Below, piece after piece: positions 24,267 through 36,813 of a stretch of 64,000 bases of DNA. The notes beneath the pieces were generated by a model. It had not been told where the DNA came from and did no database searches. It saw nothing but the letters and a program-made list of their open reading frames with translations. Each line of letters begins with the position of its first letter. The first letter of the stretch is position 1. Both the position numbers and the translations under genes were made by a program. Origin of the DNA: an uncultured bacterium (GTDB lineage: Bacteria > Babelota > Babeliae > Babelales > Babelaceae); contig OY970209.1 in NCBI GenBank assembly GCA_963713855.1, positions 608,001 through 672,000 of the forward strand, written 5' to 3'.

Positions 24267-25607
24267 ATGGTTGAGTGTATAGTAATTGACCAATCTCCTG
24301 CATTACGTGGGTCGGTGGATGTTGCAGGTGCCAAGAACGCTGTGCTTGTTATTATGGCATCGCTCATCTTGACCTCAGGAAAATCTCGTCTTTTTAATGT
24401 ACCCTGGTCCGCAGATGTGGAGCACATGGCTTTGCTGCTTCGGACTTTGGGAGCGGACGTCGAATTTAACCGTGTTAACCAATCGTTAGAGATTGATACT
24501 GCGCACCTTAATCGCTACACAATCAATCCAGAAAGCATGCGCAAGATGCGTGCTTCTATTCTTCTCATGGGACCCCTTCTTGCTCGTTTTGGCTTAGCAG
24601 AAGTGGCCATACCCGGAGGCTGTGTTATAGGTCAACGTCCAATAGATTTTCACCTTAAAAGTTTTGTGCGCATGGGAGTTGAACTAGAACTGCAGGGCGA
24701 ATTTATCAAAGCGACTGCAAGTCAATTAAAAGCCACACGCATCGTGCTTGAATACCCAAGCGTTGGTTGTACCGAAAATGTTCTTATGGCAGCGGCTTTA
24801 ACACCCGGATTGACGACCGTAGTTAACGCAGCCTTAGAGCCCGAAGTGCTTGACCTCATTGCAGCGCTTCAGAAAATGGGAGCATCGATAGAGATAAAAG
24901 CTCCTGCAACAATTGAAGTCGAAGGCATGGATGAGCTACGACCAATCGAGCATACCATTATGCCTGATCGGTTAGAGGCTGGGTCGCTTCTTGTAGCAGC
25001 TGCTATGACGGGCGGGACCGTTACGGTACGACATGTTTCCGCTTTAACTCTTGAGGTATTTTTAGAAAAATTATCTGAAATGGGGCATACCATTTCAATG
25101 GGGCCTGCGGGCAAGGATATTACACTCAAAGCAACAGATTCGCCTAAAGCGGTGTCTTTCAGAACCATGCCCTATCCGGGCTTTCCCACTGATCTTCAAG
25201 CGCCAATGCTTGCGGCACAGTGTGTTGCTGAAGGTGTAAGTTACATTCAAGAAACAGTGTATGAAAATCGCCTACTCCATACGCGTGAGCTTCAAAAAAT
25301 GGGGGCGCATATTACGTTGGATGGCCAAACGGCTACAATCAAAGGGGTTGAAATGCTTTACGGCAGTCGCGTTATAGCTACAGATATACGAGCATCTGCA
25401 GCTTTGATTGTTGCTGGCCTTAGAGCCGAGGGTCAGACTATTATGACGGGTATCCACCACTTAAAGCGCGGCTACCAAGACATTGAACGCAAGCTTTCAT
25501 ACTTGGGAGCTCGACTTGGGTACGCTTCATATGAAAATGTTCTCCATGACGCAAAGCCCGTTTTTTCAACTGAAAATAGGCCACAAACCGCTGATGCTAG
25601 TCTATAA
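24267..25607 (+). CDS. murA: UDP-N-acetylglucosamine 1-carboxyvinyltransferase
   Basis: GAKNA, MRASIL, PGGCVIGQRPIDFH, PYPGFPTDLQ, TDIRAS. Confidence 0.97.
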   Translation: MVECIVIDQSPALRGSVDVAGAKNAVLVIMASLILTSGKSRLFNVPWSADVEHMALLLRTLGADVEFNRVNQSLEIDTAHLNRYTINPESMRKMRASILLMGPLLARFGLAEVAIPGGCVIGQRPIDFHLKSFVRMGVELELQGEFIKATASQLKATRIVLEYPSVGCTENVLMAAALTPGLTTVVNAALEPEVLDLIAALQKMGASIEIKAPATIEVEGMDELRPIEHTIMPDRLEAGSLLVAAAMTGGTVTVRHVSALTLEVFLEKLSEMGHTISMGPAGKDITLKATDSPKAVSFRTMPYPGFPTDLQAPMLAAQCVAEGVSYIQETVYENRLLHTRELQKMGAHITLDGQTATIKGVEMLYGSRVIATDIRASAALIVAGLRAEGQTIMTGIHHLKRGYQDIERKLSYLGARLGYASYENVLHDAKPVFSTENRPQTADASL

Positions 25608-26539: not shown

Positions 26540-27121
26540 ATGGTTATAGTCATAGATGCTTATAATGTGCTTAAGGCGGATTTTGGCAATGCCTTTATTC
26601 AACCGCACGTGACTGAGCGCTTTATCGATGACCTGTGGGCATATAGTAAACGTAAGCACCACACACTGCTTGTTGTTTTTGACGGTGGTCCTGATGTGCG
26701 CGCCTCAAGAAGAGTAAAAGATTACCTTCAAGTCATCTATGCGGGTAGATCGCGATCTGCTGATGATGCCATTAAAGAGCTTCTTGAAATACTAAACCCT
26801 GCTGATACTTTGCTTGTAACTTCAGATAGGATGTTGCGTACGTACGCTTGGCGGTATAGTATTAATTCTATTGAGCCATCTCTTTTTAGGCGCTATAGTA
26901 AGTCTTCCAATGTAGTTGAAAAGCCGCGCGTTATTAAAGATAAAAAAGCTCCGGTAAAAAGAACGAATCATGAAAGTAGTGTCGAACTAGATGAACTGAT
27001 GCAAAAGGCCGCACAGGTAACATTTATAAAGGAAGAGGATGTAGCTTTGCCCGAAACTGAAGCGTTAGAAAAGACATCAAAAAAAGAACGAAAACTCTCT
27101 TACCTGATAAGCAAGTTATGA
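26540..27121 (+). CDS. NYN-domain (YacP/Rae1-like) ribonuclease
   Basis: IDAYNV, VVFDG, SADDAI, VTSDR motifs. Confidence 0.85.
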   Translation: MVIVIDAYNVLKADFGNAFIQPHVTERFIDDLWAYSKRKHHTLLVVFDGGPDVRASRRVKDYLQVIYAGRSRSADDAIKELLEILNPADTLLVTSDRMLRTYAWRYSINSIEPSLFRRYSKSSNVVEKPRVIKDKKAPVKRTNHESSVELDELMQKAAQVTFIKEEDVALPETEALEKTSKKERKLSYLISKL

Positions 27122-27549
27122 AAGTACATGAACTAATCTACACGCTTGATACCATAGACGACGTTGCCGAGGACCTTCATGAGCTTCTACCGGACGTTTC
27201 CGTTTTAACATTTAGCGGCAGCCTAGGCGCTGGTAAGACAACCCTTATTCAGGCGCTTTTAAAGCGTTGCGGTATTTTTGACGTAATACAAAGTCCCACA
27301 TTTACCTACTTGTCTCCATACACGAACTCAAGCGGCCAAACCTTTTATCATTTTGACCTCTACCGCATTAAATCATTACAGCATTTTCGTGAAGCCGGCT
27401 TTGAAGAGTATCTTTACGAGCTTAATAGCTGGTCTCTTATCGAGTGGCCCGCAGTCATAAAGCCATTACTAACTTGTAAAGTTGCTGATTTTGTAATCGA
27501 TTATTACGGCCAAGATAGAAGAAAACTAACCTATTCAATTAAAAAATAA
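27118..27549 (+). CDS. tsaE: tRNA threonylcarbamoyladenosine biosynthesis ATPase
   Basis: GSLGAGKTT, SPTF, HFDLYR, IEW. Confidence 0.95.
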   Translation: MKVHELIYTLDTIDDVAEDLHELLPDVSVLTFSGSLGAGKTTLIQALLKRCGIFDVIQSPTFTYLSPYTNSSGQTFYHFDLYRIKSLQHFREAGFEEYLYELNSWSLIEWPAVIKPLLTCKVADFVIDYYGQDRRKLTYSIKK

Positions 27550-27624: not shown

Positions 27625-28667
27625 ATGCAAAGGCAAATCTATGATGCGCTATTTGTCACTGTTATGGCTGTTCGTTTTTCGAATCTCATATATGGTGAAG
27701 GCTTTGGGCCTTACACGATGATACCTGTTTTTAACGGATTTACGCCTATTTATTTGCTTAATAAAGGTGATACAGTTCGTTGTCATCACTATGACACAAT
27801 AAGGATAGCTAATGTTCGCATTCACTCTGTAACTGAGTCTGTAATAATAAAGTTTAGTAACGAGGAGCAAGTGTGGGTTGCAGCAGACCAACGCATCTAT
27901 GTACCTGTTAGATACAAACATCGTTTTGTTTATGAACTTTATCCTTGTTATGACGATGATAGCTGGCGGACTTATTTTTTTGGCTTGAGTTCTGCACGGT
28001 TACTTCGATCGAGTTTCTATTTCATAAGCCACTTCCTTTTTACAGTTTAGAAATTGCGGGGTTAGACCAAAAATTCTGTTTGATAGATCAAGTGGAGGTG
28101 CATAACTTTCCCTGGACTGCAGGCGTAGAGATTACATTTAGCCATGACGGCTTATTTGATTTTGCAAGTTATGCATTTGCTAATTTCAACGTATATGGAG
28201 TTGTGATTTTTGCTGGGGTTGCTGTTGGAGCTGCTGCAAAATATGCCTATGATAAAACCAAACAGAAATGGGAAAATACGGGTTTTAGAGTTAAAGTAGA
28301 TGCAGCAGACAAAAAGCCCGAGGAGGATTGTGATCCGGCATTTCCTCATACATGCTCATACATGGATGCACCGTACCACCATCATCAGAGTCGGGGAAGT
28401 GCTGAAGGCGGCAAAAGTAGAGCGCCTAAGAATGGTCTAGCTGCTTTGCGCAATTCAATCCCAATTGGTGGAAGTAGTTATGCTCGTATTGGTGTTAGTG
28501 AAGGCGAAATAGTTAAACTTCCCTACAGTAATAACTGTATTTTTCATGGATTTGTAGAGTGGGATGATTTGGATAAATCTGCCCGAAGTATGCTTGAGAA
28601 AGCTGGCCTAGTGAACAAAAAAGGCAGGATTTTATATCATGTTACCAAAATTAGAATTTATTTATAA
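27625..28667 (+). CDS. Polymorphic toxin: Hint domain, hydrophobic linker and C-terminal toxin; split by a frameshift near the T7 tract at 27975-27981
   Basis: Hint N-block GEGFGPYTMI...PIYLLNKGD.V. The -1 frame from 27963 gives FYSLEIAGLDQKFCLIDQVEVHN. The C-terminal domain YMDAPYH...KSRAPKNGLAALRNS...FHG..W..L...LEKAGLV resembles CdiA/Rhs/MafB-type tips. Confidence 0.7.
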
Positions 28668-29250
28668 TAAGGAAAAAGGTGCGATACAACTTTACGCGTC
28701 TAGCAAAAGTTTTTCAAGAATACTTTTGTTTTTAGATGTACTGAATGTCATCGAAGATAAGTATCTTTTTTTAGATAAATTGCTAAACAATCAGTCGAGC
28801 GAGCTTTCTCCGTCAATTAGCAACATTGGATATATAGAGAATGAATATTCTTATACTGAAATTTTGCCACACGGTATTGAATCTGAAGATTTCTTAAAAT
28901 TTGTTTTTTGCTCTACGCCAAGTTATCCGCAACCCAACCTCACTACATGGATTTATAAACAAGCTAATCGCTATTACTTAGAGATAACTCCTAATTATCC
29001 CTACGAATATAGAGATCCTAAGCCAGATGAGAGGTACATATCGTTTGAAGACTTTATGAAGGATTATAAGCCCTTCTATAAAGAAACTATAACAAGACAG
29101 GATCTTCAAGAGTTAAGAAATTTATTTGCCAAAGCGACTATAGAAACCTATAAAAACATGTATTACGACGCAATGCATGCTTTAAGTGAAACTGAAGCCT
29201 GTAGGCACATGGATGTGGATGATCAAGATAAAAGGCAGAAACTTATGTAA
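28639..29250 (+). CDS. Putative immunity protein
   Basis: Overlaps the toxin 3' end; acidic and aromatic-rich with no signal peptide. Function inferred from position only. Confidence 0.5.
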   Translation: MLPKLEFIYNKEKGAIQLYASSKSFSRILLFLDVLNVIEDKYLFLDKLLNNQSSELSPSISNIGYIENEYSYTEILPHGIESEDFLKFVFCSTPSYPQPNLTTWIYKQANRYYLEITPNYPYEYRDPKPDERYISFEDFMKDYKPFYKETITRQDLQELRNLFAKATIETYKNMYYDAMHALSETEACRHMDVDDQDKRQKLM

Positions 29251-29276: not shown

Positions 29277-29501
29277 TCATTTTTTTTGTCCTGCTTTGTA
29301 TTCAGCCATCGCACATCTGAGCGAAGTGCCGAATTGTCGAACACAATATTCGTCACCGCTACCACAATAGCCGGCATCGCTACAACAACGGCCAGGATCG
29401 CAATCACGATTGCATTTGCATCTGCCTGAAGGATCTTCTTTAGAAAAACTTGCCGAGGGTAGGGCAAGGATAAAAATCGCTAGTATTAATGACGTTTTCA
29501 C
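29277..29501 (-). CDS. Secreted hevein-like (chitin-binding type 1) Cys-rich peptide, 74 aa
   Basis: GTG start at 29501 with GAGGT RBS; signal peptide; CKCNRDCDPGRCCSDAGYCGSGDEYC. Confidence 0.8.
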   Translation of the reverse strand: MKTSLILAIFILALPSASFSKEDPSGRCKCNRDCDPGRCCSDAGYCGSGDEYCVRQFGTSLRCAMAEYKAGQKK

Positions 29502-29629
29502 AGAGTACCTCAATTCTATTTTTGCTAAGACTTCATCTTGAAAAAGTGCCGACTTGTCAACCAAAATGTTAATCCGCAATAGCGCGATTACTGCAACAGT
29601 CGGGACGTGAGCTGATTATGAGTGCTTTT

Positions 29630-29806
29630 TTAGCGCCCTGGTAACAACTCACAGTATGCACGGCCTGCTCCACAAAATCCAAATTGGCTGCAACAGCGGC
29701 CTGCGTCACAGTCATTATCAGATTTACATGAGTGCTGCGCATTTTCCGCAAGACAAACAGATGATGCGCCCATGAGTAGTAAGACTACTATATATACTTT
29801 TTTCAT
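29630..29806 (-). CDS. Secreted hevein-like peptide, 58 aa (below the ORF-track cutoff)
   Basis: Manual translation: MKKVYIVVLLLMGASSVCLAENAQHSCKSDNDCDAGRCCSQFGFCGAGRAYCELLPGR*; AAGGGA RBS. Confidence 0.87.
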   Translation of the reverse strand: MKKVYIVVLLLMGASSVCLAENAQHSCKSDNDCDAGRCCSQFGFCGAGRAYCELLPGR

Positions 29807-30017
29807 GATATCCCTTCTTGTTGACGTAAGGAATTAAGACCAATGTCAAAATTATTAGTAATTATATATTACAATTATTTAATTATTAATTGCAAGAGTC
29901 TATCATAGATACTCGTGCGGGGGGAAAGCTCTTTAGCCATTTTATGGATTTTTTGAAAACTTCTTATTGACTAAATTATTCAGTTTGTTATTTTGAATAC
30001 AATAATTACCCCATAGT

Positions 30018-31529
30018 TTGAGTCATATGTTATATCGTTTAGTTTGTGTATGTTTATTATTCACGTGCTCTTGTGGTAAAGCGCTTGAAAAGCTAGATAA
30101 TCGGTTAGAGCGACTTGATTTTTCCGACAAAGTTATTGCGGTGCGTGATATTGCCGTGGATGCAGCACACTTTCTTGCTGATCCTGAGGCTGCGCGTAGT
30201 GCCTTACACTATTATAACTTCTTGCGTGAAAAAGCCCATGTGCCGATTGCTTCTCTTAACAATGAGATTGATACTGATTGGCTTACTCATTTTGAGAGGA
30301 AGTTTACCATTTTAGCTTCGCTAGAATATTCTTTAAAGAATGACTGTAAGAAGGCTTTGCTTATGTTGCCAAGCCAGTCCCAAGAAGCGCTTTTAGAGGA
30401 AGCCGCAAAAGACCTAGATATTAAATCTCATCTTGTGCCCGTTGGTTTGACTTATGAGGGCGGAAAGGCTTTTCCTCGTTATGGCACCTTTACCAAGATA
30501 GGTATCGGGCTAGATCCGGATTTGCAGGTACGTACATCAATTTTGTACCATGAACTCGGCCACGTTTTTTATAAGGATTCAGAAATAGGTCTTACTCAAG
30601 AAGAAATTGAAAAATACGTCCAAACGGACCACTTTAAAAAATTTAACGCAAAAGTTGAGCGCTTAGTACAAAAAGGTGCCTCTCTTCTTTCAAGCCTACA
30701 AGGCACTCAGTTAGGAACTAGGCTCTCTAAAATGTGTAATGAAGAAGCAATGGGGCTTATTAAGACCCAAGGATTTTTATGGGTTGGTTCCAATGATCTT
30801 GAGCTTGAGGCTTACCAAAAGCAAGAACCTGAGGAATATGCTTCTACCCTCTACGAAAGATTTACAGAACAACGTGCAGATCTTTTTAGCTATGAAAAAC
30901 TATATGAAAATGATAAGCTTGCTGCACTTTTTGCCCAATTTCGTGAATTTTCAGCCGACACCAATAGCATTGTGCAAAGAGGAAAGATAGTTCATCCATC
31001 TAATCTAGAACGCATTCTCTACGGTCTTGGTTATTTAGCAGACAAAGGCGAAGATGTTGCAAAATCGGTCACAGAATGGGAAAGTCAGGGTGAGTGCGTC
31101 GATGCTGAACAATTGACATGCAAGGGACACTGTGCACACGTTATGAAGCACGCTGGGACCCGCGATGCGCTTTCGGTCTATTATGCATTAAGCAATGAAG
31201 ACTACCTGGCTTGGAAAAAGGCGAATAAAAAGCACCAAAATGTAGTCTCGGTTATCGATGATCTAAAAAAATCTTTAAAATCACTGGAAAAGCCGAACGC
31301 TTGTATAAAGCCACTCTACATGTATAACCTCATTCGCGATTTGACTGATGAAAAAAGAGAGTACTTTCCCGAAGCTATTGATCAAGAGTGGATTGAAAAG
31401 GCCAAAAATAGCGTTTTCATCAGAAACTGGCTCTATGTGGGGCTTTGTATTGGTAGTACCGCGGCTCTGCTAATGCTTTTAGCTATAGACAGCCTAAATA
31501 GAGCACTACCGAAGCGTCCAGTGGTCTAA
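30018..31529 (+). CDS. Exported putative zinc metallopeptidase with C-terminal TM
   Basis: HExxH motif (ILYHELGHV) with a distal EQRAD; signal or lipoprotein-like N-terminus. Confidence 0.6.
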   Translation: MSHMLYRLVCVCLLFTCSCGKALEKLDNRLERLDFSDKVIAVRDIAVDAAHFLADPEAARSALHYYNFLREKAHVPIASLNNEIDTDWLTHFERKFTILASLEYSLKNDCKKALLMLPSQSQEALLEEAAKDLDIKSHLVPVGLTYEGGKAFPRYGTFTKIGIGLDPDLQVRTSILYHELGHVFYKDSEIGLTQEEIEKYVQTDHFKKFNAKVERLVQKGASLLSSLQGTQLGTRLSKMCNEEAMGLIKTQGFLWVGSNDLELEAYQKQEPEEYASTLYERFTEQRADLFSYEKLYENDKLAALFAQFREFSADTNSIVQRGKIVHPSNLERILYGLGYLADKGEDVAKSVTEWESQGECVDAEQLTCKGHCAHVMKHAGTRDALSVYYALSNEDYLAWKKANKKHQNVVSVIDDLKKSLKSLEKPNACIKPLYMYNLIRDLTDEKREYFPEAIDQEWIEKAKNSVFIRNWLYVGLCIGSTAALLMLLAIDSLNRALPKRPVV

Positions 31530-31599: not shown

Positions 31600-31685
31600 G
31601 GCGAGATTCCCGAGCGGTCAAAGGGGGCGGACTGTAAATCCGCTGGTTATTGCCTTCGTAGGTTCGAATCCTACTCTCGCCACCA
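31600..31685 (+). tRNA. tRNA-Tyr(GTA)
   Basis: GGCGAGA/TCTCGCC acceptor stem, anticodon loop CTGTAAA, long variable arm, GGTTCGAATCC, CCA. Confidence 0.96.
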
Positions 31686-31928
31686 CTTTTTCTCGTTTTC
31701 CCCTCTTTTTCTGACTAAAAATTCATCGTATCGCCCCCTTAGCTACAACATTTTTGAAAAAAAGTGTCATAAGCCGTTAGCCAATGGGAATAACCGTATT
31801 TTCAGCACTGATTATATCCATTACAAAAGGATTCCGGGAAAATAGCCATTGTGAATGATGCAAGTCTAGTCTATACTAGAAGGGTAAAAGTAAAGTACGC
31901 TACCAACAGCAATCTAAAATAGGCTACA

Positions 31929-32813
31929 ATGAGACTCCGAACACTGCTGCTTATAGGTCTTCTTTCGATAGGAATATGCCATATGCCGACGACTCCTCGA
32001 GTTATCGTTTGGGATTTAGGCCACACGCTCTTTGAAAGGAGTTGGTTGAGCCAAATAAAAGCTATTGGCTTCTGGGATGGGTTTTGGTTTTTTTGCCGGC
32101 ATGGTATGAGCAGTACTGAGGTGATGAGATCTTTAATGTGGGATGTTTTAAGCCTCTACAATGGCCATCCACTTTTGGTTGAAAGCCAGTTTTTGCCTCA
32201 CGATCCGTATGGATATCCATTGCCGCACCTCATGATTGAGTGGTTTATTGGTGCTAAAACAAGCGAGGAAGTTTTAAAAATCGTGGAAGACTGCGTGGAG
32301 CGCTTTGGTGGATTTAGGAGTTCTTTAGAAAAAAGAGTTGTCAAAAAGGTATTTACGTGGATGTTTACTCCTAAAGCATACGCAGAAAGCTGGATACCCA
32401 TACGCAAGGCTGTCGACCTTTTAAAGCTCTGTGCGGATCAAAAGGATACTTATGGAAATCCGCTCTTTAGATTTTACATTCTTTCAAATTTCGATGAACA
32501 AACTTATTATTACCTATCATCAGATAGCGATAATGATGTAGTCTTTGAAAACTTTAAGCAAAATCATATTTTTATATCAGGTCAAAAACACGCGTTAAAA
32601 CCCGAGCCACGCTTTTTTATGTCTCTTCTGGATAGTGCTGGTGTAGATTCCAAGGACGCAGTTCTGATAGATGATCAAGAAGAAAACTGCGAGGCTGCAC
32701 GTGCCCTTGGTATGCACGCGTTTTGTGTCAAAGATAAAGATTTTGAGCGAGCCAAAGAGGGCCTACAATCACTCGGTATGTTACCGCAAAACAACAAAGC
32801 GACAGAGTTTTAA
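31929..32813 (+). CDS. HAD-superfamily hydrolase
   Basis: VIVWDLGHTL, ILSN, KPEP, IDDQEEN. Confidence 0.85.
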   Translation: MRLRTLLLIGLLSIGICHMPTTPRVIVWDLGHTLFERSWLSQIKAIGFWDGFWFFCRHGMSSTEVMRSLMWDVLSLYNGHPLLVESQFLPHDPYGYPLPHLMIEWFIGAKTSEEVLKIVEDCVERFGGFRSSLEKRVVKKVFTWMFTPKAYAESWIPIRKAVDLLKLCADQKDTYGNPLFRFYILSNFDEQTYYYLSSDSDNDVVFENFKQNHIFISGQKHALKPEPRFFMSLLDSAGVDSKDAVLIDDQEENCEAARALGMHAFCVKDKDFERAKEGLQSLGMLPQNNKATEF

Positions 32814-34597
32814 AGACCAAATACATTACATCTCGTTTGCAAATCCAACATTCTAGGTATTAATAGCTGCATCAAACAATGATGAGACCTTTCAAGAGCA
32901 TACACAAACGGTGTTTGTCCTGCGCGATCGGTGATTCTAATATCTGTTCGTGGGTCTTCTAAGATGACACGAGCAATGTCAGTGTCGCCCACCACGGCTG
33001 CAACGTGAAGCGGAGTTCTACCGAGTACATCTTGCCCATTCGGATCTATCCTCGAATCACTTAAGGCTCTTCTTACATCATCAATATTTTGATGAAGAAC
33101 TGCGTAATGTAGAGGCAAGCCCGAGTAATCTGGTGAGACTGAAAGTAATTGAGGGCTATCCTGAGAATCATCCGCGGGAGCTAGCGGAGAGGGAATAGCT
33201 TGAGTAAGATCAACGGTATTTGTTTGTTGAGTGAGTTCGTTGTCTGCTGCCAAGAATTTTAGAAAGCTGTCATCGGCTTCATCTTGGCCTTGCTGCTCTG
33301 AAGTCGACGAAAATAAAAGAGGAAGGTTATTAAAATTGGTTGCTATCGATCGAGTTGCCAGTATTGACCGTGGGGTTTGAGCTCTGTAATTAAACTGGTC
33401 TAGATGATGTGGATAGTTCAAAGCAATGGTATCGATAATTTGCTGTAATCCTTGTTGGGCTGCTAGATGCACAGCGGTATTTCCATCAGCGTCGGGCATC
33501 AAGCAATTTTCGCCTTCTTTTTCAAGCAATTTTTGAAAAGCTTTCACATTACCCTTTTTTACAAGGTAGTGCGTTAAGGATTGTCCGTTTGCATCTAGAT
33601 AGTGATAGGTGGCTAGTTTAGTGCCTAATAGCTTTTGAAGAGCATTTTCGTCATTTTGAAAAGCTTTTTCTAAAAGTTCTTCATCCTCTTCACGAATTTT
33701 AGCTGTCTCGCGCCATGATGGTAGTCCACAGTAGAATATTTTTCGTGTGGAGTCGGATTTCGCGAGTTTTTGCCTTTTTCGAGCTGGTTGACCTACTTCG
33801 GGGGCCGGCAGTATGAAAGTGGGGGGTCTTGGTGCAAGGGTGAAGATCGGTAAGTGAGTGTGGATGGGAGGCTGCTCAATGTACCTGTTTAAAAATACCA
33901 AAAGCGATGGGTTATTGAATGCGTTTTCACGTGCAACCGCAAACAGGTACCTACGAGAATTATTTCTTTCTTCGACTGAAGAGTACCTTAGAAGGAGCTC
34001 AACTATAGAGTTAGCAGCGGGTTGCGCTTCGGGAGTTGCCGTTGCGGCCACTCTTACGGCACTTTCCAAGGCATTTGCCTTTCGAACAACTAATAAAGCT
34101 CCACTGTCTATCAATAGCTCAACTGAACGTAGCTGGTGTTGAGCTATAGCTTCACAAAGCGGTGTTCTGCCGGCAGCATTGAGATTATTAATTCCGTGGC
34201 GCTTCTTCATCTCATTGAGAATAACTTTCAGAAGATCTGGATTTTGAACGGCGACGTGAAAGGTAGTATTTTTATGATTATCTATCCAAAAACAACAAGT
34301 TTTGTAAGCCTTCATAAAAGCGACTAAAAGCGCGCTGTGTCCACGACGTGCTAGATAGATGGGTAACGGATTGCCCTCTGTATCTAGAGAGAATCGGAAA
34401 TCATAGTTTGCGTTAAGAAGCTCGTTTAAAAGAGGAAGGCCTTCGCGTACAATTCTTTCAAAAAGGTCCGTTACCTCAGTCGAGTCAGGAATAGAATAGC
34501 TAGAACCCTCCATAGAACAGAGCGTGTGAGGCACCAAAGGCAAGAATATGAGAGCTAGAAAAAAGCCGGAAAGTCTGGACTTTAAAATTTTTGTCAT
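32810..34597 (-). CDS. Secreted ankyrin-repeat protein with NLS-like motif
   Basis: GRTPLCEA, GNTAVHLAA, GRTPLHVAA, GQTP; signal peptide ending LCS-MEG; PARKRQKL. Confidence 0.9.
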   Translation of the reverse strand: MTKILKSRLSGFFLALIFLPLVPHTLCSMEGSSYSIPDSTEVTDLFERIVREGLPLLNELLNANYDFRFSLDTEGNPLPIYLARRGHSALLVAFMKAYKTCCFWIDNHKNTTFHVAVQNPDLLKVILNEMKKRHGINNLNAAGRTPLCEAIAQHQLRSVELLIDSGALLVVRKANALESAVRVAATATPEAQPAANSIVELLLRYSSVEERNNSRRYLFAVARENAFNNPSLLVFLNRYIEQPPIHTHLPIFTLAPRPPTFILPAPEVGQPARKRQKLAKSDSTRKIFYCGLPSWRETAKIREEDEELLEKAFQNDENALQKLLGTKLATYHYLDANGQSLTHYLVKKGNVKAFQKLLEKEGENCLMPDADGNTAVHLAAQQGLQQIIDTIALNYPHHLDQFNYRAQTPRSILATRSIATNFNNLPLLFSSTSEQQGQDEADDSFLKFLAADNELTQQTNTVDLTQAIPSPLAPADDSQDSPQLLSVSPDYSGLPLHYAVLHQNIDDVRRALSDSRIDPNGQDVLGRTPLHVAAVVGDTDIARVILEDPRTDIRITDRAGQTPFVYALERSHHCLMQLLIPRMLDLQTRCNVFGL

Positions 34598-34636
34598 AGT
34601 TAAAAACTACTTTATTTAATGTCGCTATATACACAT

Positions 34637-34665
34637 AGTATAATTTTAGATACAAAAAAAGTCAC
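34637..34665 (-). promoter_or_regulatory. Promoter-like element conserved with the paralog copy at 36582-36609
   Basis: GTGACT-N17-TATACT here and GTGACT-N16-TATACT upstream of the paralog; the leaders are also similar. Confidence 0.55.
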
Positions 34666-34675
34666 CCCATCAGCC

Positions 34676-36541
34676 TTATAGGTCAAGTGACTGGCATTGG
34701 CTTTCTAGGTTGAGAGCCAATTGGACTGGCTCATATAAAGGTATGTTCGTGCTATTTGGCCTTGCAAGAAGGTATGACAGTGCGTCCCGGTTAAAGTTGT
34801 CAGTGATAGTTATGTCAGTACGTTGATCAAGGATTAAAAGCTGTGCTATGGCATGGTAACCTAAAATTGCTGCGAGGTGTAACGGGGTCCACCCGTTTGT
34901 GTCTTCTCTTTCGTTTGGATTTGCGGAGGGCTGTGCCAAAATGCTTCTGACAGCGTTTAAGTTGTTATTAAGCACTGCTTGATGTAGCAAAGTGCTTACC
35001 GAGAGTAATTGCGGGCTATCTTGAGTCGTTTGATAGACTTGAGCATCCGATGGAGATTCGACTTCCTCGCCAGTAAGGTCTATAACTTCATTTAGCTCTG
35101 TAAAACTTGTGCTAGAGCTTTCAAAGACTCCTTGAGTGTATCTTCTAAAGGATTCGCCAAAAGGAGCCTCATAGTGAGCAATGTCGTTTACCCGGGTATC
35201 ATCATCTCTTAGGTTGGATGAGGGATTCTGTGTTGGTACAGTTTCATCAATATTATGTTCAGTAAAAGCTACGTTTTCTAGGATTGTGCGAGGCGTCTGA
35301 CCTGCGCGGTTTGGCTGCTCGATGAGTGCTGGCAATCGCTCAAAAATAAGAGTTACAAAATGATGTAGTCCTCTTTGAGCGGCAATATGTGCAGGATTAT
35401 TTCCCTCGTAATCCGCTGGCATTCCTTCCGCGCCGTACTGGTTAAGTAATCGCTCAAGGGCGCTGATGTTGTCGTGCATTACAAGATAATGTGCAAGGGA
35501 CCGTCCCTGTCTATCTCGATACAAATTTACCTGTAACTGCTCAGCTAAAATCTGATCGAAAGAGGCTGAATCGTTTTGAAATGCGCTTTTAAAACGTTCA
35601 GTTTCATGAGCTGCTTGACGTAAGCTTCGCCAAGAAGGTAACCCCAGGTAAAAGATTTCGCCATCGCTACTAGGCATAGGCTCGTCAATTCTGGCTTTTT
35701 TATGTGAGCGAGTCTCTTCATTGCTTTCTGGGTATTGAGACTTAGGTGTAAAAATGGGTATGGTTGGAACATAAGGTATTATCATTATTGGAACTATGTT
35801 TACCGGATATCTATTACTGCCAGCTTGGCGGAGGTAATGATATAAAAGATTCACAAGTTGCGGGTTGTTGCTTTGATTGGCAAGCTCGAGTAGGCCAAGG
35901 TTTATATATTCTGCATGGACTTCGGTATTTGTAGCATGACTGAGTAATAATGCTACAATCGCATTAGCTTCACACATTTTAGCAGAAGATACTGCTGCTA
36001 ATTTTATTGCGAGTTCTACTAAGGCAGGAGTTATGTGCGCACCGGCTTCTAGTAATTGCCTTACCTCATTGGGAAGCTGTAAGCTCACAGCAAGAAAGAG
36101 TGGTGTGTGACCATGGCTGTTTTGGCTGTTAATTCCATGAGCCCCGTTTCTTTGAGCCATGACCGCTTGAAATAAGCTGGGTCTTTCTAGAGCCAGATGA
36201 AAAATGGTATTCTTTTGTTTATCTACCCACACGGTACAATGGCTATAAAAGCTCATAAACAGTTGTATAAGCTCGGGAGTACCCCATGATGCTAAATGAT
36301 GAGCTAAAGTCCTGCCATGGCAGTCTCGAGCCGTTTTAAAATCATAGCGCTCGTTCAAAAGCTTCACTAAAAGCGTAGGCCCTTCGCGCACGATTCTTTC
36401 AAAAAGGATAGTCGTCTCTAGCCGATCAAGAGTCGTAGAGTCTGAGCACTCTTCCATGCCCTCAAGGCCATGGGGTATAAAGGGTATTAGTAAAAGGGCC
36501 AGAATGAAGCCAAAAAATTTGTTTTTCGAAGTTTTTTTCAT
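34676..36541 (-). CDS. Secreted ankyrin-repeat protein, tandem paralog of 32810-34597
   Basis: GHTPLFLA, GWTPLHLAA; shares LFERIVREG, IFYxGLPSWR and QDSPQLLSVS with its neighbour. Confidence 0.9.
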   Translation of the reverse strand: MKKTSKNKFFGFILALLLIPFIPHGLEGMEECSDSTTLDRLETTILFERIVREGPTLLVKLLNERYDFKTARDCHGRTLAHHLASWGTPELIQLFMSFYSHCTVWVDKQKNTIFHLALERPSLFQAVMAQRNGAHGINSQNSHGHTPLFLAVSLQLPNEVRQLLEAGAHITPALVELAIKLAAVSSAKMCEANAIVALLLSHATNTEVHAEYINLGLLELANQSNNPQLVNLLYHYLRQAGSNRYPVNIVPIMIIPYVPTIPIFTPKSQYPESNEETRSHKKARIDEPMPSSDGEIFYLGLPSWRSLRQAAHETERFKSAFQNDSASFDQILAEQLQVNLYRDRQGRSLAHYLVMHDNISALERLLNQYGAEGMPADYEGNNPAHIAAQRGLHHFVTLIFERLPALIEQPNRAGQTPRTILENVAFTEHNIDETVPTQNPSSNLRDDDTRVNDIAHYEAPFGESFRRYTQGVFESSSTSFTELNEVIDLTGEEVESPSDAQVYQTTQDSPQLLSVSTLLHQAVLNNNLNAVRSILAQPSANPNEREDTNGWTPLHLAAILGYHAIAQLLILDQRTDITITDNFNRDALSYLLARPNSTNIPLYEPVQLALNLESQCQSLDL

Positions 36542-36813
36542 AATGAAAAGCTACTCTATTTCATGTTTACCGATGCATTCTAGTATAGCTAAAAATTTCT
36601 AAAAGTCACTTTTTAAGATATTTGTCTACTACATGATGTCACTATAAATGGTTATTTAGTTGGCTAGTGAGTCCGCGCCTTGTGAAAGCTTTCTTGTAAT
36701 AAGATAAGAAATACGTCAGCTGATGTTTAGATATTTGTGGCGTAATGTAAGGAAAAGGCTTTGAGGCGCCCTTGCAATAAGAGCAAAAATACTTTATTCT
36801 ATAGCAGAAGAAA

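Follow-up and report, generated by a model that had tools for sequence, protein, structure and literature searches.

Hevein-type, probably exported peptides in a Dependentiae genome: candidate mini-lectins and their relatives

Dependentiae are widespread protist parasites, and their secreted proteins are mostly of unknown function. In one genome of this phylum, two small neighboring genes encode peptides that carry the chitin-binding signature of hevein. They lie in the window, the whole 64,000-nucleotide stretch of DNA analyzed here, and a first-pass annotation proposed them to be horizontally acquired mini-lectins. This locus raises the questions of whether the peptides belong to the hevein family, where they came from, and what they may do for a parasite of protists.

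The genes and their membership in the hevein family

Gene 1 (29630..29806, minus strand) encodes a 58-aa precursor, which likely consists of a 20-aa signal peptide and a 38-aa six-cysteine hevein-type peptide. Its hevein core (29651..29728, minus strand) reads C-x5-C-x4-CC-S-x-F-G-F-C-G-x4-Y-C, and a ribosome-binding-site-like AAGGG (29812..29816, minus strand) is located five bases upstream of the ATG. Gene 2 (29277..29501, minus strand) encodes a 74-aa precursor with an eight-cysteine mature peptide. Its frame opens at TTG 29579, which gives 100 aa in the ORF listing, and GTG 29501 is the likely start, with a ribosome-binding-site-like GAGG (29508..29511, minus strand) six bases upstream. 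The signal peptides were called by eye from a basic N-terminus, a hydrophobic core, and small residues at the likely cleavage point, and both peptides are likely exported. The first-pass annotation had placed the two genes correctly, with their ribosome-binding sites and signal-peptide-like N-termini, and had written both motifs exactly. It had also reported that gene 1 keeps the Ser and the three aromatic residues of hevein and that gene 2 does not, and the sequences agree: the mature part of gene 1 has six Cys and the complete set (Ser with F, F, and Y), while that of gene 2 has eight Cys, two of them extra, and Ala at the first aromatic position. A fourth disulfide could form from the two extra Cys. 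The mature peptides of genes 1 and 3 (see below) are acidic (pI 5.5), and that of gene 2 is mildly basic (pI 8.2). A degenerate DNA pattern of the hevein motif had two matches in the window and none in any of 100 shuffles. Promoter-like sites around the genes were at chance level (6 against 4.6 expected).

A six-frame scan of the 1.52-Mb genome revealed a sole additional gene, a distant paralog (gene 3; G000:C1:875207-875503) located 238 kb away, which encodes 98 aa with two hevein domains. The gene upstream of it is presumably superoxide-dismutase-like. In an exact-sequence look-up, the protein collection held gene 1, while either version of gene 2 and the distant paralog were absent. All four domains of this genome have a six-cysteine core with a CC pair and the sixth Cys seven residues past the fifth. 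We take the Ser and the three aromatics to correspond to hevein positions 19, 21, 23, and 30, with Ser19 as a sugar-binding residue. The full set is present in gene 1 and in domain 2 of the paralog, and gene 2 and domain 1 of the paralog are one aromatic short. The three aromatics are described as the sugar-binding site of hevein (PMC4695807).

Against Pfam Chitin_bind_1 (PF00187), gene 1 scored 27.9 bits with a gathering cut-off of 27.8 bits, a margin of 0.1 bit, and the distant paralog scored 32.1 bits over its two domains. The hevein/CBM18 assignment of the first-pass annotation is thereby upheld for gene 1; gene 2, as 74 aa, reached 25.7 bits and stayed under the same cut-off. The NCBIfam profiles gave no match for the peptides, and the scytovirin family profile (PF20888) gave none among genes 1-3. 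The best solved-structure sequence matches of gene 1 were wheat germ agglutinin (WGA) and Ac-AMP2, followed by scytovirin (E 6.5e-4) and squash inhibitors; the match to a squash trypsin inhibitor (E 0.002) covers residues 26-48, the disulfide core only, and gene 1 remained under the cut-off of the squash inhibitor family PF00299 (13.1 bits against 22). In the ESM Atlas, the first match of gene 1 (0.86) fell in PF00187 clusters, which serves as a lead only.

A model of gene 1 predicted from a four-row alignment (mean pLDDT 72.9) contains a short strand pair and a C-terminal helix, which is the layout described for 6-Cys heveins (PMC4695807). In a Foldseek search with this model, 6-Cys heveins headed the list at E values of 0.17 or above, with no row at E <= 0.001. 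Squash trypsin inhibitors also matched the model (Foldseek TM 0.55), and in a wide structure search a squash inhibitor tied with WGA at a VIA Z of 2.5-2.6. Therefore, the fold does not give the function. The model is modestly consistent with an Ac-AMP2-like hevein fold and is not decisive. Judged from their sequences, gene 1 and the distant paralog are true hevein-family members, and gene 2 is a borderline one.

Occurrence elsewhere and origin

In the phylum, PF00187 exceeded its cut-off in one of 261 genomes, namely this one, and a search of the same-genus genome (93% complete) gave no match; the rarity implied by the first reading is thus confirmed. Two other genomes (G103 and G228) gave weak PF00187 rows, whose open frames span just 23 and 27 residues, and these rows were rejected as chance; matches of the four-domain or relatives' profiles in G066, G138, G147, G174, and a long G103 protein were likewise set aside as chance. 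Word-indexed homolog searches are nearly blind to such a short query and returned one match (itself) and two matches. A profile of the four domains gave 242 matches at E <= 0.001 against 1.84 billion representatives, and the best 150 of the 242 are mostly eukaryotic-looking by architecture. Three matches were named on look-up: a rotifer, a chytrid fungus, and a eukaryote-proteome entry.

A scan of species genomes yielded at least 118 loci, of which 107 failed the filter for an in-frame hevein motif, mostly as low-complexity sequence, and 11 had a clean motif; the scan shows presence, not frequency. Among the matches listed, eight of the 11 look like plant or fungal contaminants, seven on contigs shorter than 6.4 kb and one on a 117-kb contig, and the other three belong to cultured Gammaproteobacteria: Pectobacterium polonicum (complete chromosome), Biostraticola tofi, and Phytopseudomonas flavescens. 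The first-pass view of the family as essentially eukaryotic is therefore too strong, and hevein domains appear to be rare, yet not absent, outside eukaryotes. Plant/fungal-type chitinase sequences in public prokaryote assemblies (L112, L113, L121, L164, L172, L104, L141, L117) are probably contamination.

The gammaproteobacterial proteins (TKY82970.1 in Pectobacterium polonicum, L090:1764-2153; Biostraticola tofi, L070:1721-2110; Phytopseudomonas flavescens, L169) resemble the present peptides in being small, bacterial, secreted PF00187 proteins (40.8 and 34.8 bits for the two scanned). However, they are annotated as hypothetical, have a plant-type N-terminus, more Cys, and C-terminal extensions, and lie beside exporter genes in the two loci read (those of Pectobacterium polonicum and Biostraticola tofi). 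By sequence, they look like separate gains. The Pectobacterium protein has a cysteine-rich hydrophobic tail that gives a bacteriocin-like impression only, and a plasmid search with it gave no match. Of 48 viral-contig matches, eight had an in-frame hevein motif inside longer ORFs (L011, L012, L015, L022, L025, L033, L034, L045); the contig of one of these eight bears the label of a giant-virus genome. Scans of viral contigs that used the protein or the lineage-specific pattern as query gave no match. No PF00187 lectins were found in 316 cyanobacterial genomes (PMC10655256), and the KNOTTIN database is described as including bacterial knottins (PMC5753296). In the open full-text literature, we found no description of hevein-type peptides from Dependentiae or from these three gammaproteobacterial species; bacterial PF00187 entries may already be on record in subscription papers, database taxon tables, or supplements.

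The four-domain profile also detected small secreted cysteine-rich peptides in six other genomes of the phylum. A profile restricted to those six peptides detected one copy each in 12 of 40 genomes from the family to which the present genome belongs (five of the 12 by construction, as their peptides are in the profile). These peptides (L197-L210; G004, G048, G050, G045, G003, G016, G005, G052, G053, G012, G049, and G051) are 65-90 aa long, secreted, and unnamed, and they form an undescribed peptide family. They lie mostly between gatB and parA, with a gatB motif within 3 kb in 11 of the 12 genomes and a parA motif in nine. The best solved match of their profile is scytovirin (E 1.8e-7). Several carry an additional Cys at a position known from inhibitor cystine knots and score weakly on families of that type, and an ESM Atlas search with a gatB-linked peptide gave no named match. 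A ParA/Soj search of the present genome with a relative's protein gave no match (best tblastn E 0.19), and the same-genus copy is broken by stops.

The gatB-linked knots (e.g. MBA3954247.1, 'hypothetical protein', Ca. Dependentiae) share with the present domains a signal peptide, the core spacing, and often S-x-F-G-[YF]-C, and the profile-profile probability between them is 98%. They differ in their single copy at a conserved locus, their extra Cys, and the lack of a hevein tail. The present genome has no such gene at its gatB locus, and the extra Cys after the second core Cys, typical of the gatB-linked family, is found in none of its four domains. For the peptide of genome G100, which belongs to another family of the phylum, the alignment with gene 1 begins at the start codon (E 2e-8). 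A metagenome scan gave seven loci: the contig of G100 itself, one further bacterial-looking peptide similar to that of G100, and five eukaryote-like ones. The metagenome contig L237 is Dependentiae-like by the look of its genes alone.

Two known systems flank the present peptides. The six-cysteine heveins (Ac-AMP1/2 of amaranth, PDB 1mmc; SmAMP, 2kus/2n1s; PF00187, CBM18) have in common with them a signal peptide followed by a domain of ~30 residues, six Cys with a CC pair, the Ser and three aromatics, and the strand pair with C-terminal helix, seen here in the model. However, the gene here is bacterial, the gene 1 peptide is acidic instead of basic and has no C-terminal propeptide, binding is a prediction here, and the front loop C-x5-C-x2-G-[RK] is common to the relatives' knots and scytovirin. 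Scytovirin (Scytonema varium; PDB 2jmv, 2qsk; PF20888) is likewise a small disulfide-rich bacterial lectin with a hevein-like sequence, and it shares the two-disulfide core and the stretch G-x-R-x-C-S-x-x-G-F-C. It differs in its disulfide arrangement and aromatic triad and in a two-domain, five-disulfide layout, whereas the present peptides have six Cys per domain, the third disulfide pair of hevein, and the tail aromatic. Scytovirin is described as resembling hevein in sequence but binding high-mannose glycans, not chitin (PMC8004682). Unnamed multi-repeat scytovirin-type proteins that are non-cyanobacterial-looking were also encountered (P0026, P0098, P0107, and P0121, the last with 92.9 bits on the scytovirin family).

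The six-peptide profile, built without this genome and including the G100 peptide, detected each of the four domains of the present genome, at E values of 1.7e-9 to 9.8e-6 per genome. Therefore, descent within Dependentiae is at least as plausible as transfer, and the horizontal acquisition from a eukaryote proposed in the first-pass annotation is unproven. At roughly even chances, we slightly favor a common origin with the scytovirin-like knots found in other Dependentiae over a separate gain from a eukaryote or its virus.

The strongest competing explanation keeps the same lectin function but supposes that a compact six-cysteine hevein domain was acquired independently, by horizontal transfer from a eukaryote (fungus, alga, small animal, or protist) or a large virus, and shares no descent with the relatives' knots. 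We consider this a serious contender at somewhat below even chances, an estimate that concerns origin only and is not additive with those for function. The rarity in the phylum and the absence from the same-genus genome agree with it, as do the eukaryotic-looking top library matches, including the few named ones, and the eight viral-contig motifs. The sixth Cys follows the fifth by seven residues in all four domains here and in 84 of 103 eukaryote-like domains, but in none of 12 Dependentiae-type knots. In contrast, the G-[RK] loop is present in all four domains and in 8 of the 12 knots, but in only 7 of the 103 eukaryote-like domains (the 103 being those left after removal of 19 cluster duplicates). 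Gene 1 and the G100 peptide agree at 14 of the 19 positions of the two-disulfide core, a level reached by one of 136 eukaryote-like domains; two relatives' peptides with other spacing were excluded from this core comparison, so that 11 remained. The alignment of gene 1 with the G100 peptide from the start codon also speaks against transfer. Over core and tail together, however, the best matches of gene 1 are eukaryote-like (19/27 against 14/27). The relatives' profile without G100 ranks the four domains 23, 103, 11, and 48 of 137 among eukaryote-like domains, i.e. without preference. The eukaryote-like set was chosen with this genome's own profile, which inflates the likeness, and no outstanding donor emerged. 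In sequence terms, the front of the four domains resembles the relatives' knots, and their tail resembles hevein.

In a tree of 40 rows and 35 columns, three domains fell between the relatives' and the eukaryote-like groups and one among eukaryote-like rows. A constraint that joined the domains with the relatives' knots was not rejected (p-AU 0.38), although the free 35-column tree lacks that clade. The opposite constraint, with the relatives' knots apart, gave a p-AU of 0.048; this is a search artefact, because the free tree itself satisfies it, and it was given no weight. The trees cannot decide the origin.

Residence in the genome and the tsaE to tRNA-Tyr slot

Between genes 1 and 2 lies a decayed third copy (29544..29598, minus strand), a hevein-core remnant with indels and a stop that is most like gene 2; its local score against the gene 2 core is 41, while the maximum in 1000 shuffles is 35. 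Genes 1, 2, and 3 are alike in DNA beyond all 1000 shuffles, and the pairs with gene 3 are alike from the start codon onward. All three have ordinary third-position G+C and a ribosome-binding site, and their codon adaptation percentiles are 0.63, 0.88, and 0.97 relative to same-length pieces from 602 long ORFs. The native codon usage argues against contamination. These features point to a small resident family under birth and death, not to contaminating DNA, and the time that the family has spent in this lineage was enough for its members to duplicate, disperse, and decay. A lineage-specific hevein duplication in a parasite, including lectin-only genes, is also described for the CBM18 expansion of Batrachochytrium dendrobatidis (PMC3569864), although that organism is a fungus with its own chitin wall and its proteins are larger and multi-domain. 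An assembly artefact, in which eukaryotic DNA was joined into the contig, is extremely improbable: the genome has an estimated contamination of 3.26%, and other species genomes do contain contaminant-looking plant/fungal chitinase contigs, but the two loci lie 238 kb apart on a single 1.52-Mb contig, the genes are intron-free with bacterial ribosome-binding sites and native codon usage, and the flanks are syntenic with relatives.

As the first-pass annotation had it, the region is flanked by tsaE (27118..27549, plus strand), the conserved left flank, and tRNA-Tyr (31600..31685, plus strand), the right flank. It had called the interval an island, for which a variable slot is the better description. 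The gene content differs in each of three relatives examined, none of which has these peptides, while the G+C of the slot (0.38-0.40 against 0.41 for the genome) shows no composition shift, and neither a long flanking repeat around the slot nor an integrase-sized ORF within it was found. The annotated toxin was recognized correctly insofar as two plus-strand ORFs of 141 and 195 aa (27625..28667) match the front and back of a polymorphic-toxin HINT protein, which is thus in two pieces. The annotated metallopeptidase, a 503-aa ORF (30018..31529, plus strand), has an HExxH motif but a weak M48 peptidase score (E 0.059). A 203-aa ORF (28639..29250, plus strand) overlaps the toxin-like ORF, matched no family in profile searches, and is possibly its immunity gene, by position only. 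PADLOC gave no match on four neighbors, and no functional link between the neighbors and the peptides emerged. Homologs of one neighboring gene and of a relative's peptide carry the names Ca. Babeliaceae and Ca. Dependentiae in their source entries. Beyond the slot (31686-36813 of the window), a HAD hydrolase gene and two ankyrin-repeat genes lie between tRNA-Tyr and tRNA-Gly; these tRNA genes are near neighbors in two relatives, and the same-genus genome has other genes between them.

Possible function and its meaning

We consider the peptides to be probable soluble mini-lectins that bind GlcNAc oligomers and are aimed at the eukaryotic host. The two genes and the third elsewhere encode cysteine-rich hevein-motif peptides of 4-8 kDa that are likely exported. 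They would leave through Sec, would be oxidized outside the cytoplasm without DsbA/DsbB, and are predicted to fold as disulfide knots. From hevein chemistry, the Ser and three aromatics would stack on three GlcNAc units; gene 1 and domain 2 of the paralog would offer the full site, and gene 2 and domain 1 of the paralog may bind weakly or to another sugar. The soluble peptides would likely cap GlcNAc oligomers (chitin or chitobiose-type glycans) of the host. The hevein domain is joined to neither an enzyme nor a membrane anchor, and no GH18 chitinase was found in the genome; the GH19 search matched no control genome and is uninformative. According to PMC6561590, Dependentiae live within protists as intracellular partners and use Sec to export numerous small proteins. 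Acanthamoeba cyst walls are reported to bind WGA and to likely contain chitin (PMC11423589), though the host of this bacterium may lack chitin. Because the peptides of genes 1 and 3 are acidic, unlike plant hevein-like antimicrobial peptides, which are described as basic (PMC4695807), a binding role is more plausible than membrane killing. The lectin role first proposed remains the best guess, and the acidity of the gene 1 peptide makes the antifungal role the weakest of the three options in that proposal.

The peptide folding is unexplained, because DsbA-type proteins, DsbB, and VKOR were not found in this genome (91% complete), where DsbD is present; DsbB exceeded the cut-off in none of 81 phylum genomes. 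A simple filter gave 13 small secreted cysteine-rich ORFs in this genome, including the three hevein genes. Among the secreted cysteine-rich proteins seen, one of 179 aa (G000:C1:682096-682635, L217) has two cysteine-rich repeats and a C-terminal hydrophobic segment and is weakly cyanovirin-N-like (CVNH E 0.098) without PDB support. Two others (G000:C1:833882-834331 and 1469381-1469752; L220 and L222) have galaxin-like repeats that scored under the cut-off, and seven more small ORFs have no clear family.

Three other functions appear quite improbable. The peptides might be lectins for another glycan, such as the high-mannose N-glycans bound by scytovirin, which matches gene 1 and tops the solved matches of the relatives' profile; the weakly CVNH-like secreted protein of this genome also fits. 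However, gene 1 matches PF00187 and gives no match to the scytovirin family, and, unlike the scytovirin-type rows, it possesses the third and sixth Cys along with the tail aromatic. To a self-protective role we attach a similarly small chance. In that case, the GlcNAc that they bind would be that of the bacterial envelope itself (peptidoglycan), which they would protect against lysozyme of the host in the food vacuole, as fungal CBM18 proteins are proposed to shield chitin. A Sec-exported peptide meets the periplasm first, and the window has a gene at 24267-25607 that we take, from its sequence, to be MurA-like. Hevein domains may also bind GlcNAc-containing glycoconjugates other than chitin, according to PMC3569864. 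But monovalent 4-kDa peptides with neither an anchor nor a multivalent array would bind weakly, and most relatives lack the full site though exposed to the same digestion. Finally, the peptides have little prospect of being non-lectin knottins, which would inhibit proteases or act on the membranes of fungi or protists. Squash trypsin inhibitors resemble the gene 1 peptide in sequence and fold, the M48-like ORF is adjacent, and gene 2 is mildly basic, but the squash match is confined to the disulfide core, genes 1 and 3 are acidic, and sugar binding accounts better for the conservation of the Ser and aromatics.

For the host-directed lectin, a more far-reaching account is conceivable, though we regard it as rather unlikely. 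A native Dependentiae family of exported disulfide knots would span scytovirin-like, inhibitor-knot-like, and hevein-like forms. In the present lineage, with the chitin-binding site gained or retained in full, it would have expanded into mini-lectins directed at the host. These would cap the chitin of the host, e.g. block the assembly of the cyst wall, and would fold in its oxidizing compartments, independently of DsbA/DsbB.

In this study, we identified a decayed third copy, a two-domain paralog 238 kb away, native codon usage, and an apparent link to an undescribed knot family of relatives. This is not the only bacterial hevein case, as judged from the gammaproteobacterial sequences. The findings raise the question of how many exported cysteine-rich peptides fold in a group with no DsbB found (0/81 genomes). 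At 38-78 residues, the peptides are cheap to make, and with them one could test directly whether bacteria of this kind direct lectins against the glycans of their hosts. Their sequences, intermediate between scytovirin and hevein, bear on the rise of a chitin-binding site on a two-disulfide core, and if the native-family account with its complete site is true, they would represent a bacterial bridge between scytovirin and hevein.
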